DNA from: Escherichia coli
Lineage (GTDB): Bacteria; Pseudomonadota; Gammaproteobacteria; Enterobacterales; Enterobacteriaceae
DNA length: 64,000 nt
Reading direction: 5' to 3' (one strand)
Assembly: GCF_013122565.1 (NCBI RefSeq)
Contig: NZ_CP053258.1
Shown here: positions 2,822 to 42,503 of the stretch, piece by piece
Layout: each line of letters starts with the position of its first letter
Position numbering within the stretch: position 1 is the first letter of the stretch
The notes under the pieces: model-generated
Database searches by the model: none
What the model was told of the DNA's origin: nothing
What the model saw: the letters and a program-made list of their open reading frames with translations, nothing else
Made by a program: the position numbers and the translations under genes

Positions 2822-4078
2822 ATGGGATCTGATGCGAAAAACTTGATGAGCGACGGGAATGTGCAAATTGTTAAGACCGGCGAGGTCATTGGCGCGACGC
2901 AACTTACTGAAGGCGAGTTGATTGTTGAAGCTGGCGGAAGAGCCGAAAATACCGTGGTCACGGGGGATGGCTGGTTGAAAGTGGCAACCGGTGGGATCGC
3001 CAAATGCACACAGTACGGTAACAATGGCACGCTATCGGTCAGCGACGGTGCCATTGCCACAGATATTGTTCAGTCCGAGGGAGGCGCAATTAGTCTCTCT
3101 ACGCTCGCTACGGTTAATGGCCGCCATCCCGAAGGTGAATTCAGCGTTGATAAAGGTTATGCCTGCGGTTTGTTGCTGGAAAATGGCGGTAACCTGCGTG
3201 TACTGGAAGGCCATCGCGCGGAAAAAATTATTCTCGATCAAGAGGGCGGCCTGTTGGTCAATGGGACAACCTCAGCGGTCGTGGTAGATGAAGGTGGTGA
3301 ATTGTTGGTGTATCCAGGTGGGGAAGCCAGCAATTGTGAGATTAATCAGGGCGGCGTTTTTATGCTGGCGGGGAAAGCCAATGATACGTTGCTTGCTGGT
3401 GGCACCATGAATAATCTCGGTGGTGAAGACTCTGACACTATTGTTGAGAATGGAGCCATCTATCGTCTGGGGACGGATGGCCTTCAGCTCTACAGTTCCG
3501 GTAAGACGCAAAACCTGTCCGTTAATGTGGGTGGTCGGGCTGAAGTGCATGCCGGTACGCTGGAAAATGCGGTAATACAAGGTGGAACAGTGATCCTGTT
3601 GTCACCCACCAGCGCGGACGAAAATTTTGTCGTAGAGGAAGATCGCGCACCGGTTGAACTGACCGGGAGTGTTGCATTACTGGACGGCGCTTCAATGATT
3701 ATTGGCTATGGCGCAGATCTGCAACAATCAACGATTACTGTACAGCAGGGCGGTGTATTGATTCTCGACGGCAGTACGGTAAAAGGTGACAGTGTCACTT
3801 TCAGTATTGGTAACATCAATCTGAATGGCGGAAAACTGTGGCTGATCACTGGTGCGGCAACGCATGTGCAGCTGAAAGTGAAACGCCTGCGCGGAGAGGG
3901 AGCGATTTTCCTGCAAACCAGTGCGAAAGAAATTTCACCTGACTTCATCAATGTGAAAGGGGAAGTTACCGGTGATATACACGTTGAGATAACAGATGCC
4001 AGTCGGCAAACTCTGTGTAACGCACTGAAACTACAGCCAGACGAAGACGGGATTGGCGCAACGCTCCAGCCTGCGTAA
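2822..4078 (+). CDS. ydhQ: autotransporter-adhesin-related protein YdhQ (Gly-rich beta-helix-like repeats, no translocator barrel)
   Basis: ORF track 418 aa; Gly/Thr/Val-rich repetitive sequence typical of AidA-type passenger domains; length matches E. coli YdhQ. Confidence 0.85.
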   Translation: MGSDAKNLMSDGNVQIVKTGEVIGATQLTEGELIVEAGGRAENTVVTGDGWLKVATGGIAKCTQYGNNGTLSVSDGAIATDIVQSEGGAISLSTLATVNGRHPEGEFSVDKGYACGLLLENGGNLRVLEGHRAEKIILDQEGGLLVNGTTSAVVVDEGGELLVYPGGEASNCEINQGGVFMLAGKANDTLLAGGTMNNLGGEDSDTIVENGAIYRLGTDGLQLYSSGKTQNLSVNVGGRAEVHAGTLENAVIQGGTVILLSPTSADENFVVEEDRAPVELTGSVALLDGASMIIGYGADLQQSTITVQQGGVLILDGSTVKGDSVTFSIGNINLNGGKLWLITGAATHVQLKVKRLRGEGAIFLQTSAKEISPDFINVKGEVTGDIHVEITDASRQTLCNALKLQPDEDGIGATLQPA

Positions 4079-4118
4079 AAATACAGGCGCAACCCGTGAA
4101 GGTTGCGCCTTGTCTTTA

Positions 4119-34676: not shown

Positions 34677-36179
34677 TTACGCTACGGCTGCTTTCGCCGC
34701 TTTGTCTGCAGCGTCATCCTGCGTCATGCGGTGCAGTTTCGGCGCGGTCAGCAGCATCAGTACTGCAATAACGGCAGTAGCGACACCAATCTGCAAGAAT
34801 ACGCGACCATAGACTTCCAGTGACATCAGCGGATCGGTAACGTTATCCGGCACAGCCATCATACCCGCAACATAACCACCAATCAGGTTTGCACCGGCAG
34901 TGGTCAGGAACCAGCTACCCATAATGAAGCCCATCAGACGCTGCGGAACGAGTTGTGCAACCATTGCCAGACCCAGACCAGAGATCATCAGTTCCCCGAT
35001 GCTCTGCAGGCCATAGCTTGCGACCAGCCAGCTTACAGACACGATACCAGCGTCAGACGCGAATTTCGCACCCAGCGGCAGAATCAGGAACGCACCAGAA
35101 CACATCACCATGCCGATTGCAAACTTGGTTGGCATCGGCAGGGTATCGCCCATCTTGTTATAGATAGCGGCCAGAATCGGACTACCGATGATGATCCAGA
35201 ACGGGTTCAGTGCCTGATACTGCTCAGGTTCTACGGCCAGACCCAGAATGGTGTGTTCAACGTTACGAATCGCAAAGAAGTTCAGTGACGTTGGCATCTG
35301 GCTGTACAGCACGAAGAAGATAATGGCTTCGAGCATCAGGATGAAGGCAACGATCATTTTACGACGCGCAGCACCTTTCATCGCGAAGGCTTCTTTACCG
35401 AAGATCACCACGATACCGAAGGCAACAACGCCCAGCGCCATACGCGCAACTTCCTGATTGTGCAGCAGCCAGGTGGCGATAGCGATCAGTGCCACAACAC
35501 CAATAATGGTCAGCAGCAGGTTACGGTAGTTGATAGGCTCGAAGTCTGGTTTTGAACCGTACTGTTTAACCCAGCGTTGGCAGAAGGCGAAGTTAACGAT
35601 AGTGATCAGCAGGCCTACAACGCTCAACGCAAACGCAACGCTCCAGCCGTATTTCGCAGCCAGCCACGGGGTGGCGATCATAGAGAAGAAAGAGCCGATG
35701 TTGACGGACATGTAGTACATGGTGAATGCACCGTCCAGACGTGGGTCGTTTTTCTCATAGCATGTAGAAAGCAGAGAAGACGGGTTAGCTTTAAACAGGC
35801 CGTTACCGACCGCAATAGCCGCCATACCCATATAAACAATACCGGCGTCGTGACCAGACCAGGCAACCAGAGCATAACCAATCGCCAGCACAATAGCGCC
35901 GAGCATAATTACGCGTTTAGTACCCAGTACCTTGTCACCTAACCAGCCGCCGATAGCGACCAGACCATAAACCAGGGCACTAAAGGAAGAGAAAAGGGTG
36001 ATTGAATCCGCTTCAGACATACCCAGTTGTTTAACCAGGTAAACAGCCATAATTCCTTGTAGGCCGTAATAACCAAAACGTTCCCATAACTCAATCGAGA
36101 AGATGAGATAGAACGCCTTCGGTTGTTTGAAAGCGTTCAAACTGACGCTTTCAGTTGGTTTTTGGTTTGCAGTGGACAC
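34677..36179 (-). CDS. dtpA: di/tripeptide:proton symporter DtpA (TppB; POT family)
   Basis: ORF track 500 aa; POT-family signature region ([13 protein letters not shown]). Confidence 0.92.
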
Positions 36180-36789
36180 TTTTACCTCTTTTTTTACATC
36201 CCATATTAACGGGGGTGCTTTCTCGCGTTATGTCTAAAAAACATACGCGCAATTGTTATAGTGGGAGGGGAAACGGCAGGTAATGTTCACTATCTTGCAC
36301 TTTCAGACAAGTCCTTTGTAATAATCTGTTACATATAACTGGGGCGGGGAATTCAACCATTCCGGGAAATGTTATGCAGCGTTAAATTTTTCAAAAAACG
36401 TAACGGCAGATTTTTTCACTGCATTGAGAGGGGGATGATGGCTTAACGGCGATATGTTCTGCTATTTAGCGTTTTTCCTAGTGAGATAGTCCAGTTTCTG
36501 AAAAATAGCCAGTGTAATGTTTTGTAGGTCAATATTTGTTGCGTGTGTAAATTTAAATGATTTTAACCTGATTCTTGCAATGTTTTTACATTGCCACAGC
36601 ATCGTGATCTTGATCACGAATGAATAGAAAATTTCGCTATTAAAAAAACAATTAACCTGCATTTTTGGTTATCCGCAAACGGATTACCTGATGATAACGC
36701 TAAGCAATGGCATCATTGACGTTAAAAAGATGTTTTAAAAGAGGATAAAGAAAGGTTATGAATGGGGTAATCGGTGTTACCCCTTATCA

Positions 36790-37425
36790 TTAGATGTCAA
36801 CTTTCTCTTTGTATTCACAAAGATCTTCAATAATACAAGAGCCACAGCGAGGCTTGCGGGCAATGCAGGTATAACGCCCGTGCAGGATCAACCAATGGTG
36901 GCAGTCGACTTTAAACTCTGCCGGAACCACTTTCAGTAGCTTTTCTTCTACCTGTTCGACGTTTTTCCCCGGCGCAAATTGAGTACGATTACAAACGCGG
37001 AAAATGTGCGTGTCGACAGCAATAGTCGGCCAGCCGAATGCAGTGTTTAATACGACGTTGGCTGTTTTACGACCTACGCCGGGCAGGGCTTCAAGCGCAG
37101 CACGATCTTCCGGAACCTCGCCATTATGCTGCTCCAGTAAGATACGGCAGGTTTTGATGATATTTTCTGCTTTGCTGTTATAAAGCCCAATCGTTTTGAT
37201 ATAGGTTTTCACCCCTTCAACGCCCAGTTCAAGCATCGCTGCAGGCGTATTCGCCACCGGGTAGAGTTTCGCCGTCGCCTTATTAACACTGACATCGGTC
37301 GCCTGAGCGGAAAGCAGTACGGCAATCAACAATTCAAAAGGCGAACTGAAATTAAGCTCGGTGGTGGGATGAGGATTGTTCTCACGCAGGCGAGTGAGGA
37401 TCTCCAGGCGTTTTGCTTTGTTCAT
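36790..37425 (-). CDS. nth: endonuclease III
   Basis: ORF track 211 aa; HhH-GPD motif and C-terminal 4Fe-4S Cys cluster (CIARKPRCGSCIIEDLC). Confidence 0.95.
   Translation of the reverse strand: MNKAKRLEILTRLRENNPHPTTELNFSSPFELLIAVLLSAQATDVSVNKATAKLYPVANTPAAMLELGVEGVKTYIKTIGLYNSKAENIIKTCRILLEQHNGEVPEDRAALEALPGVGRKTANVVLNTAFGWPTIAVDTHIFRVCNRTQFAPGKNVEQVEEKLLKVVPAEFKVDCHHWLILHGRYTCIARKPRCGSCIIEDLCEYKEKVDI

Positions 37426-39806: not shown

Positions 39807-42503
<2,697 letters not shown>

Follow-up and report, generated by a model that had tools for sequence, protein, structure and literature searches.

Why does a gap of 610 bp separate two genes that are read in the same direction? In the window, the 64-kb stretch of Escherichia coli DNA analysed here, nth (36790-37425) and dtpA (34677-36179, GTG start) both lie on the minus strand, and the DNA between them occupies positions 36180-36789. 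The original prediction, made from the sequence alone, described this interval as AT-rich and as far more than a simple promoter needs. It proposed that the interval holds a long 5' UTR, multiple regulator sites or an unannotated small RNA, together with a stem-loop that could terminate the rsx-nth operon. DtpA is the main proton-coupled di-/tripeptide importer of enterobacteria, and it also imports peptide-like drugs. Its promoter (tppB/ydgR) was reportedly found to be OmpR-activated in E. coli and Salmonella by Goh, Siino and Igo in 2004.

Results

Layout and composition of the gap

Intergenic stretches were ranked after transfer of the K-12 genes onto the window. The nth-dtpA gap is the longest of them, as had been claimed, and the runners-up are of 386 and 334 bp. 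Its GC content is 0.369, compared to 0.509 for the whole window. Since the other gaps of at least 100 bp span 0.315-0.48, the gap is indeed AT-rich, though to a degree that is ordinary for intergenic DNA. The K-12 counterpart is also 610 bp long and aligns to the window ungapped with 10 mismatches, all of which fall outside the conserved blocks described below. No RefSeq annotation lies inside the gap in K-12 or in GF3-3, the closest genome checked. Among the matches listed for 5,423 E. coli genomes, the only annotated features were nth and dtpA, and there were none for an inner 81-bp query.

In 45 Enterobacterales species the gap is made up of the same parts, namely a hairpin after nth, a variable spacer, an upstream module of about 385 bp and a leader of 96-98 nt. 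Their positions are given in Table 1.

Table 1. Features of the nth-dtpA gap in window coordinates, listed from nth towards dtpA; negative positions are counted from the dtpA start.
Feature	Position	Strand	Remarks
GC-rich hairpin GGGGTAACACCGATTACCCC	36764-36783	-	Reads 36783 to 36764; starts 6 nt after the nth TGA
Spacer, fast-evolving and variable in length, no conserved feature	36660-36763		Column identity 0.24-0.45
Distal block CAGGTTAATTGTTTTTTTA	36641-36659	-	About -383 to -365; information content high across 31 species aligned by their CRP-like site
Lrp-consensus-like box TAGAAAATTTCGCTA (+) / TAGCGAAATTTTCTA (-)	36625-36639		Conserved core AAAWTTTCTAT
CRP-type palindrome CGTGATCAAGATCACG	36603-36618		Centre 36610.5, about -335 from the start site
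Low-conservation stretch of fixed length between distal and middle blocks	36525-36602		Column identity 0.25-0.5
Middle blocks CAAAACATTACAC, ATTTTTCAG and CTATATCACT-like	36480-36524	-	Conserved; next block fixed at 25 bp (22 species)
Very strongly conserved block TAGCAGAACATATCGCC	36448-36464	-	-188 to -172; information content near the maximum
GadX ChIP-exo peak and adjoining conserved block CAGTGAAAAAATCTG	Peak 36418-36438, block 36407-36421		Published peak; block from conservation
Block GAAAAATTTAACGCTGCATAACATTTC	36366-36392	-	-116 to -90; two 10-bp repeats, each with a TAAC core
OmpR boxes GTTATATGTAACAGATTATTACAAAGG	36313-36339	-	10-bp half-sites in tandem, cores TAACA and TTACA; directly next to the -35
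Core sigma-70 promoter	-35 TTGTCT 36305-36310; -10 GAACAT/AACATT 36282-36288	-	16-bp spacing
dtpA transcription start (inferred)	36275-36277	-	Back-calculated from two ChIP-exo tables; K-12 1712671-1712673
dtpA 5' leader	36180-36274	-	96-98 nt from the start site; CU-rich 5' end CCGUUUCCCCUCCC
Leader parts	Hairpin 1 36224-36249; hairpin 2 36196-36218; A-rich stretch; SD GAGG 36185-36188	-	
GTG start (36177-36179) and CA-rich codons 3-13	36142-36179	-	Predicted GcvB R1 pairing site

Conserved blocks at fixed distances

Within the upstream module, conserved blocks alternate with substitution-saturated spacers of nearly constant length. The block-to-block distances of 24, 15, 154-155, 75, 13, 41, 40 and 17 bp are invariant, in 25 of 26 up to 39 of 39 species, and identity within the spacers is only 30-35%, where 27% would be expected at random. 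Measured to the GTG, the distance of the AGCAGAACATAT block varies with a standard deviation of 1.7 bp, compared to 15.8 bp for the nth-proximal part and 25 bp for the neighbouring dtpA-gstA gap. Such fixed spacing is a constraint on length; the cause is not thereby given.

The individual distances were as follows. The distal block CAGGTTAATTGTTTTTTTA is separated from its neighbour by exactly 24 bp in 25 of 26 species, and the CRP-type site lies 154 or 155 bp from the AGCAGAACATAT block in every species where both were found. The low-conservation stretch at 36525-36602 contains weakly conserved words resembling TGATAAC or ATGTTAAAT and, in the window, also the palindrome GCAATGTAAAAACATTGC. 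The block TAGCAGAACATATCGCC has a mean pairwise identity of 0.79 among 29 representatives, and the next block is exactly 75 bp away in 34 of 34 species. The corresponding values for GAAAAATTTAACGCTGCATAACATTTC are an identity of 0.81 and a distance of exactly 41 bp to the OmpR box in 36 of 37 species. With its repeated cores, GAAAAATTTAACGCTGCATAACATTTC may be a secondary OmpR-type site. An ArcA box was also considered at this block and was rejected because its repeats are spaced by 10 bp, not 11; no match within one mismatch was found. Helical periodicity of AA/TT gave a weak signal (z about 3 at lags of 9-11), which is confounded by shared ancestry.

These distances bear on the view, implied by the use of the locus as a 'safe' chromosomal landing pad, that only about 170 bp of the gap are real promoter and leader and that most of it is neutral, AT-rich filler, which H-NS may coat. 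The composition is in keeping with it, as are the integrations made at this locus without reported harm and a natural insertion of the IS66 family at about 36577 in one E. coli genome. The roughly 100 bp next to nth truly evolve freely. In dozens of genera, however, invariantly spaced conserved blocks extend as far as about -385, the K-12 differences avoid them, and the insertion was found in just one of 5,426 complete E. coli genomes. As an account of the whole gap we regard filler as very unlikely. It is refuted for 36300-36660 by the comparative data and is the best description of 36660-36763.

The OmpR-dependent promoter

The half-sites ATGTAACAGA and TTATTACAAA of the OmpR boxes occupy 36315-36334 and lie 4 bp from the TTGTCT -35. 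The boxes have a mean pairwise identity of 0.83, and the -10 block lies exactly 40 bp away in 39 of 39 species. Published K-12 coordinates were transferred to the window through the ungapped alignment. The OmpR ChIP-exo peak at 1710621-1710680 (mode 'Act', centre -46.5) then maps to 36292-36351, over the boxes. In published work a PdtpA-lacZ fusion covering -201 to +15 was OmpR-dependent, being strongly reduced without OmpR, and dtpA is described as being activated when OmpR is low and repressed when it is high. The OmpR dependence mentioned in the original prediction is supported by published binding and expression data, in addition to the tandem half-sites next to a weak -35.

The dtpA promoter is the sole positionally conserved promoter-like site in the module, with a position weight matrix (PWM) score above 4 in 88% of 40 species. 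The start predicted by the PWM (36275-36276) agrees with that implied by the ChIP-exo tables. A stricter consensus scan of the window sequence found no promoter, as expected for one that is weak and activator-dependent. Two further regulators have been placed in the gap by others, GadX with a ChIP-exo peak at 1710534-1710554 in the older K-12 numbering (mode 'Rep', position -151) and YdcI, for which binding is reported somewhere between nth and dtpA.

Distal CRP-type and Lrp-like sites

The palindrome CGTGATCAAGATCACG fits the CRP consensus TGTGA-N6-TCACA at 8 of 10 positions here, and at 9-10 of 10 in most other genera. In 33 of 45 species, 428-431 bp separate its centre from the GTG. The half-sites carry about 2 bits, and the central spacer, found in 20 distinct versions, carries about 0 bits. 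The neighbouring box is the sole match to YAGHAWATTWTDCTR with one mismatch in the 64-kb window, where the total number of matches is at chance expectation. Its core is conserved, and in 27 of 31 species the CRP-like site is exactly 15 bp away. Taken as a single sequence, the CRP motif match in the window is not above chance either, and both sites gain weight only because they are conserved across species. A genomic SELEX study lists tppB as a new cAMP-CRP target, its text giving no site coordinates; dtpA is absent from the supplementary text of one CRP ChIP-exo study. In a review-type passage, tppB is listed among Lrp-controlled genes. That statement and the consensus match together make 36625-36639 a candidate Lrp site.

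With the CRP, OmpR, GadX and YdcI placements taken from publications and about 385 bp of rigidly spaced blocks, two of the earlier proposals are borne out: the gap does hold multiple regulator sites, and it is far more than a simple promoter needs. CRP activates from classical class I and II positions, -41.5 to about -92.5. The site at about -335 is outside this range, and there was no conserved promoter at a suitable distance from it on either strand.

The remoteness of the distal sites is one reason to consider a second, upstream promoter, which would use the GAACAT of 36448-36464 or lie near the CRP-type site and would give a dtpA mRNA whose leader is long, at about 270 nt or more. Some of the conserved DNA would then function at the RNA level, or would contain the promoter-proximal sites of this second promoter. 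At -335 and -355, the CRP- and Lrp-like sites lie too far off for classical activation of the known promoter, and the GadX repressor peak, oddly placed at -151, would sit at about +10 to +30 of such a start. Moreover, TAGCAGAACATATCGCC resembles the -10/start region of the dtpA promoter (ATAGTGAACATTACCTGCC) and is more than 90% conserved, so the block may be a factor site or else, as a weak candidate, a second -10. Against this, no conserved -35 pairs with the GAACAT. The PWM scan gave no positionally conserved -35/-10 pair at the GAACAT block or near the CRP site on either strand, and recovered only the known promoter as positionally conserved. The would-be transcribed region has no covarying helices, a fusion reaching just -201 is already OmpR-dependent, and no published start site was found there. 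A second promoter is accordingly judged unlikely, and the single OmpR-dependent promoter is retained as the target of the module.

No sign of a small RNA or small protein

An independent small RNA or small protein encoded in the gap was suggested by its length, the greatest in the window, by the deeply conserved sequence blocks and by the presence of mechanical ORFs of 34 and 66 aa. An Rfam scan of the gap with E up to 10 returned only noise, in the form of eukaryotic snoRNA and lncRNA models far below their thresholds. Stacked-pair covariation was scored in an ungapped 40-species alignment upstream of the start; it gave 27 helices against 24 in the parallel control, and none had two or more covarying pairs. 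The comparison across enterobacteria which the original prediction had suggested thus yielded conserved blocks over about 385 bp and no covariation upstream of the start site.

The window ORFs are intact in 0-9 of 44 species, and the longest stop-free frame across 40 species is 18 codons. An apparent conservation of a small protein in tblastn searches merely mirrored DNA conservation on both strands, and that candidate was discarded on the ORF-integrity and stop-free-frame tests. The dtpA promoter is the only conserved one, the terminator scan of both strands gave nothing terminator-like within the conserved part, and neither RefSeq (K-12 and GF3-3) nor the E. coli matches listed annotate a gene there. 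The unannotated small RNA is thus disfavoured, and we consider it, like a small protein, extremely improbable.

The hairpin after nth and the variable spacer

The hairpin after nth has a 7-bp stem and a folding energy of about -10.6 kcal/mol (z -3.1, first 60 nt). On the nth strand its 3' tail reads AUUCAUAACC / ATTCATAACC, a weak U-tail. With this tail the hairpin failed the U-run criterion of the terminator scan (a U-run right after the stem, at least 5 T in 8), and the site was flagged on the plus strand only. A non-homologous GC hairpin occupies the same position in most of 53 species with unrelated sequences, and in several of them, for example L032, L037 and L046, it is followed by a canonical T-run. 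The window hairpin probably forms the 3' end or the terminator of the rsx-nth operon. The stem-loop seen originally is therefore present and conserved in position across genera, but given the poor U-tract in the window, termination there is no more than plausible.

Between this hairpin and the module the sequence is free to change. The nth stop lies 95-162 bp from the first conserved block in 28 species. A hairpin in the spacer of the window, GGTAATCCGTTTGCGGATAACC at 36669-36690, is specific to Escherichia. In Kosakonia and Phytobacter the spacer is longer by about 560 bp, which include a 152-aa ORF. In the species with longer gaps the upstream module is still found at unchanged distances from dtpA.

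The dtpA leader and GcvB

The long 5' UTR that had been envisaged shrinks to a short one; a leader exists, at about 96-98 nt or 16% of the gap. In the window its overall fold is not exceptional (MFE -25 kcal/mol, z -1.1). For the region of hairpin 1 the median folding energy is -10.7 kcal/mol, and 43 of 45 species have z below -1.5, with 43 distinct sequences. That of hairpin 2 has z below -1.5 in 39 of 45, and hairpin 2 was recovered by RNAalifold. Both leader hairpins are kept through compensating sequence change. Neither an Rfam family nor a leader ORF was found in the leader. The CCCC at its 5' end could pair with the SD GAGG, a pairing present in the MFE fold only.

The GTG start is invariant in 45 of 45 species. 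Codons 4, 5, 7 and 8 are fixed at synonymous sites (GCA in 45/45, AAC in 44/44, AAA in 35/35 and CCA in 36/37, respectively), and codons 2 and 12 vary freely. The gene, as tppB, is a verified target of the GcvB R1 region in Salmonella, and RIL-seq chimeras are reported in E. coli. Duplexes were calculated with the G/U-rich R1 alone, the calculation with full-length GcvB being meaningless. The best R1 duplex along the mRNA lies at +8 to +38 with -20 kcal/mol, no better than composition-matched shuffles; the predicted pairing core is UGCAAAC at 36165-36171. Codons 3-13 are the likely R1 pairing site. The mRNAs of other GcvB-repressed transporters, dppA and oppA, likewise have a CA-rich site at the message start complementary to R1; that of dtpA differs in lying in codons 3-13, not in the 5' UTR, and in a duplex energy indistinguishable from composition-matched controls.

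Discussion

We think it probable that the gap consists of the nth hairpin, a free spacer, about 385 bp of multi-regulator control DNA for one weak dtpA promoter, and a structured leader. The hairpin just past nth would end or stabilise the rsx-nth transcripts, and the spacer of about 100 bp would evolve freely. The control DNA would serve a single weak sigma-70 promoter (TTGTCT, 16 bp, GAACAT; start at about 36275-36277), which OmpR on the tandem boxes adjoining the -35 would turn on. Other conserved blocks are found from -90 to -250, and the distal CRP-type and Lrp-like pair at -335 and -355. OmpR, GadX, YdcI, CRP, probably Lrp and further factors are the candidate regulators. The most likely reason for the fixed distances would be joint binding of several regulators on bent, wrapped or looped DNA; insertions or deletions would then break the assembly, so that the distances stay fixed. 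On the message, a leader of 96-98 nt would carry two hairpins and an open A-rich ribosome-binding site before the GTG start, and pairing of the CA-rich first codons with GcvB would reduce translation.

A more specific version is put forward tentatively, with somewhat less than even confidence. The 385 bp or so would form a fixed-geometry, enhanceosome-like nucleoprotein assembly made up of the CRP- and Lrp-type sites and at least four other blocks. Wrapped or looped DNA would let the distal sites at -335 and -355 and these blocks communicate with the OmpR-dependent promoter. Such an assembly would explain how 1-bp length changes are rejected across much of Enterobacterales at the same time as the spacer sequences are randomised.

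The locus is the same as that of the tppB/ydgR promoter studied in E. coli and Salmonella, and the OmpR boxes by the -35, the OmpR dependence and the start position agree with published tables and fusions. The published work retrieved covers about 200 bp, and in it no description was found of the leader hairpins, of the fixed spacing or of the blocks between -200 and -385.

The ompF promoter has OmpR sites F1-F3 beside it and a distal site, F4, about 350-380 bp upstream, with DNA looping that involves IHF. It too is OmpR-controlled and stands behind a co-oriented gene; the asnS-ompF gap is 602 bp in K-12, compared to 610 bp for dtpA. Both leaders are about 100 nt long, both genes have a distal element near -350, and dtpA, like ompF, is on at low OmpR and repressed at high OmpR. 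The distal element of dtpA, however, looks like a CRP palindrome with an Lrp-like box, not an OmpR site, and looping at dtpA is inferred only. Similarity between the two upstream sequences was not significant (score 26 against 21.7 +/- 2.3 for shuffles).

Long multi-regulator intergenic regions such as csgD-csgB and gltBDF are under joint control by Lrp, IHF, CRP and other factors. As at dtpA, each of these loci has one promoter on which several global and specific regulators act from AT-rich DNA of several hundred bp. For csgD-csgB or gltBDF we know of no report that about 365 bp have kept almost the same length in many genera. The gap is an ordinary kind of element, a multi-regulator promoter region, with an unusually strict architecture that is little described.

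There is a practical side to this. Chromosomal insertions and reporter libraries are widely placed in the nth-ydgR gap, which serves as a 'neutral' landing pad. Since most of the gap is under purifying selection, insertions may disturb dtpA regulation, and reporters placed there may be influenced by the local regulators. If the fixed spacing reflects cooperative assembly, the region would offer a compact natural system for distance- and helical-phase-dependent promoter architecture in bacteria. In the enterobacteria themselves, envelope, pH, carbon and amino-acid signals appear to be integrated at dtpA by control DNA that is unusually long and rigid.

Layout of the nth-dtpA gap

The 610-bp gap between nth and dtpA (36180-36789) is flanked by minus-strand genes and was therefore read as its reverse complement. 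As originally predicted, it is the longest non-coding stretch in the window, the runners-up being 386 and 334 bp when K-12 genes are transferred onto the window. It is AT-rich, as had been noted (G+C 0.369, compared with 0.509 for the window), at a level typical of intergenic DNA, because the other gaps of at least 100 bp span 0.315-0.48. The K-12 MG1655 counterpart (1712159-1712768) is also 610 bp long, and its ungapped alignment to the window shows 10 mismatches; the RefSeq annotations of K-12 and of the closest genome checked contain no feature inside it. Among the 5,426 complete genomes of E. coli, 5,423 matched the 811 bases around the gap at 95-99% identity, and one carries an insertion in the gap. 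In that strain, GZ2408C (comparison locus L086, 3054-5972), an IS66-family ISCro1 (tnpA, tnpB, transposase) lies at window position ~36577 and splits the distal CRP/Lrp-like blocks from the remaining dtpA control region. Elsewhere in the window, the K-12 alignment of rsxC (39807-41933) covers only 2080 of 2223 nt, leaving a 3'-end stretch unaligned, which suggests a length difference in its repeat region; mepH (13683-14510) is 828 nt, compared with 816 in K-12.

Features of the nth-dtpA gap and its flanking genes (window positions)
Feature	Position	Strand	Remarks
nth	36790-37425	minus	
Hairpin after nth	36783->36764	minus	7-bp stem, 6 nt past nth TGA
Conserved block	36641-36659		
Lrp-like box	36625-36639		Window's best Lrp-consensus match, one mismatch; 15 bp upstream of CRP-type site
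CRP-type site CGTGATCAAGATCACG	36603-36618		TGTGAT-N4-ATCAC(T/A/C) in other genera
Conserved block	36480-36524		
Conserved block TAGCAGAACATATCGCCG	36448-36464		
GadX peak	36418-36438		Mapped ChIP-exo; adjoins conserved CAGTGAAAAAATCTG
Conserved block	36366-36392		Two 10-bp repeats with TAAC cores
OmpR peak	36292-36351		Mapped ChIP-exo; spans tandem boxes ATGTAACAGA and TTATTACAAA
dtpA -35, TTGTCT	36305-36310	minus	Sigma-70 weight matrix
dtpA -10, GAACAT/AACATT	36282-36288	minus	Sigma-70 weight matrix
Leader 5' end, conserved CU-rich CCGUUUCCCCUCCC	36262-36275	minus	
Leader hairpin 1	36224-36249	minus	Sequence differs in almost every species
Leader hairpin 2	36196-36218	minus	Recovered by RNAalifold
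SD, GAGG	36185-36188	minus	With an A-rich stretch that follows hairpin 2; then GTG
dtpA (tppB, ydgR)	34677-36179	minus	GTG start codon

Comparative anatomy

A search for Nth-encoding loci yielded 80 Enterobacterales species, each represented by one genome. dtpA lies downstream of nth in 52 of these. In 44 of the 52, as in the window, the gap is 522-718 bp, and all of these start dtpA with GTG. In an alignment of 45 sequences, approximately 100 bp beside nth vary in length and could not be aligned, and the remainder is filled with conserved blocks. The inter-block distances, 24, 15, 154-155, 75, 13, 41, 40 and 17 bp, are essentially invariant (each in from 25/26 up to 39/39 species), and that from block AGCAGAACATAT to the GTG has an sd of 1.7 bp, a variation that falls entirely within the transcribed leader. 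The nth-proximal segment is 95-162 bp long (sd 15.8), and the neighbouring dtpA-gstA gap of the same species 98-221 bp (sd 25). Identity is 79-88% in the blocks compared with 30-35% in the spacers (random expectation 27%). Since the spacers are near random and the block distances fixed, some 365-385 bp upstream of the start site have been randomised between blocks yet resist indels. Kosakonia and Phytobacter have about 560 bp added between nth and the module, ie the ~385 bp of blocks and spacers upstream of the dtpA start site, but the distances from module to dtpA are retained, and the module therefore belongs to dtpA. All 10 differences between the window and K-12 fall outside the conserved blocks.

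The added DNA encodes a hydrophobic 152-aa ORF convergent with nth (3643-4101 in comparison locus L012; also in L015, L025 and L052). All 5,422 complete genomes of E. coli show 95-100% identity in the spacer at 36535-36595. In a genome labelled E. coli SCPM-O-B-8794 (L005), Nth and DtpA are 99% identical to those of the window and the equivalent spacer is only ~30-70% identical, like that of E. albertii; this genome may belong to a divergent lineage of Escherichia, or the segment may have been exchanged by recombination.

Promoter and regulators

The two K-12 genome versions used for numbering are offset by 1976 bp. Supplementary tables of two published ChIP-exo studies list, in the older numbering, an activating OmpR peak at 1710621-1710680, centred at -46.5, and a repressing GadX peak at 1710534-1710554, at -151. 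The offset is corroborated by the OmpR peak, which then lands exactly on the OmpR-like boxes, and both tables imply a dtpA start at K-12 1712671-1712673 (window 36277-36275). A simple sigma-70 weight matrix, applied to both strands of 40 registered species, found a single positionally conserved promoter on either strand, scoring above threshold in 88% of the species, with a predicted start at 36275-36276. A stricter consensus scan missed it, as it would be expected to if the promoter is weak and depends on an activator. The reported dependence of dtpA on OmpR agrees with the OmpR peak and with a published -201 to +15 fusion, whose expression depends strongly on OmpR but is repressed again when OmpR is in excess. 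Transcription of dtpA would most likely start from one weak promoter needing OmpR at -40 to -61.

The suggestion of multiple regulator sites was well founded, given the published binding of OmpR, GadX, YdcI and CRP and the conserved blocks. [quoted passage not shown] We infer that CRP binds at the site in the table because it is the sole good CRP-type site in the gap. Its half-sites carry ~2 bits and its centre ~0, with 20 different versions among the species; in 33 of 45 of them, 428-431 bp separate the centre from the GTG. The core of the Lrp-like box is conserved across species, and tppB has been listed among Lrp-controlled genes; in a single sequence, CRP and Lrp motif counts are at chance level. 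The repeats at 36366-36392 would suit a second OmpR dimer; their spacing does not fit an ArcA site. Block TAGCAGAACATATCGCCG and the -10/start region ATAGTGAACATTACCTGCCG (36274-36293), 171 bp apart, share the pattern ATAG..GAACAT...GCCG; they may have arisen by an old duplication, or both may be sites of a single protein.

Constraint on DNA or RNA

An unannotated small RNA had also been considered, and the analysis argues against it: the gap has no Rfam family (a permissive scan gave noise only), no covarying helices upstream of the start site and one conserved promoter only. Compensatory pairs should stand out ideally in an alignment that has no gaps and whose spacers have randomised. Searched for stacked columns that mostly pair, the part upstream of the start site gave 27 candidate helices compared with 24 in a parallel-register control, none with two or more covarying pairs; what is constrained there is therefore the geometry of the DNA rather than an RNA structure. 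The mechanical ORFs, the longest of 66 aa, survive intact in only 0-9 of 44 other species, and no stop-free frame exceeds 18 codons across the ungapped 40-species register. A weak periodicity of AA/TT dinucleotides at 9-11 bp (z ~3) is only a hint of DNA curvature. GadX, YdcI, CRP, probably Lrp and further factors would occupy blocks up to -385, and the simplest account of their fixed mutual distances would be joint action on bent, wrapped or looped DNA.

Leader and nth 3' end

The leader is 96-98 nt, not the long 5' UTR envisaged. The hairpin 1 region has a median energy of -10.7 kcal/mol, with z < -1.5 in 43 of 45 species; the stability of the whole window leader is unexceptional (z -1.1). 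In the minimum-energy fold CCGUUUCCCCUCCC can pair with the SD GAGG, and both sides are invariant, so that no covariation signal is possible. The role of CCGUUUCCCCUCCC might be translational self-inhibition, or the binding of a small RNA or protein. Within dtpA, synonymous positions of codons 4, 5, 7 and 8 (GCA AAC .. AAA CCA) are fixed in 35-45 species, and codons 2 and 12 vary freely. The best pairing of the G/U-rich R1 of GcvB (K-12 sequence) along the mRNA is with this CA-rich tract, at +8 to +38 (-20 kcal/mol), an energy no better than that of composition-matched shuffles. In Salmonella, tppB has been reported as a verified target of GcvB R1, and in E. coli it gives RIL-seq chimeras; the dtpA mRNA would then come under GcvB control at its first codons.

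The stem-loop proposed to terminate the rsx-nth operon does have a 7-bp stem, but its tail, AUUCAUAACC, lacks a proper U-run, and a terminator scan passes the hairpin on the plus strand only, not on that of nth. In most species a G+C-rich hairpin begins 5-10 nt past the nth stop, unrelated in sequence between genera; z is < -2 in 25 of 53 species, and several have a canonical T-run. Conservation of position despite sequence turnover supports a functional 3'-end hairpin, at which rsx-nth transcripts would end. Given the poor U-tract in the window, it may be an efficient terminator, only a 3'-end stabiliser, or Rho-requiring.

Significance

The proposed arrangement would resemble the ompF region. 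Like dtpA, ompF is an OmpR-controlled gene with a co-oriented upstream gene, and the asnS-ompF gap (K-12 locus L087, 284-885) is 602 bp compared with 610 bp. The ompF region also has a distal element, at about -350 to -380. Local sequence similarity between the two gaps is not significant.

The OmpR-dependent promoter, the binding of GadX, YdcI and CRP, and GcvB control are already published; no literature description was found of the leader hairpins, or of the extended series of conserved blocks and its invariance in length. The gap is neither a new kind of element nor a small RNA; it is an under-described example of the known long multi-regulator promoter regions. As a landing pad for chromosomal insertions, the nth-ydgR gap is in standard use and is treated as "neutral" (Kuhlman and Cox 2010; promoter reporter libraries integrated into the genome). 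That use carries the caveat that the gap is mostly under selection, ~385 bp of it being conserved and length-invariant across Enterobacterales.
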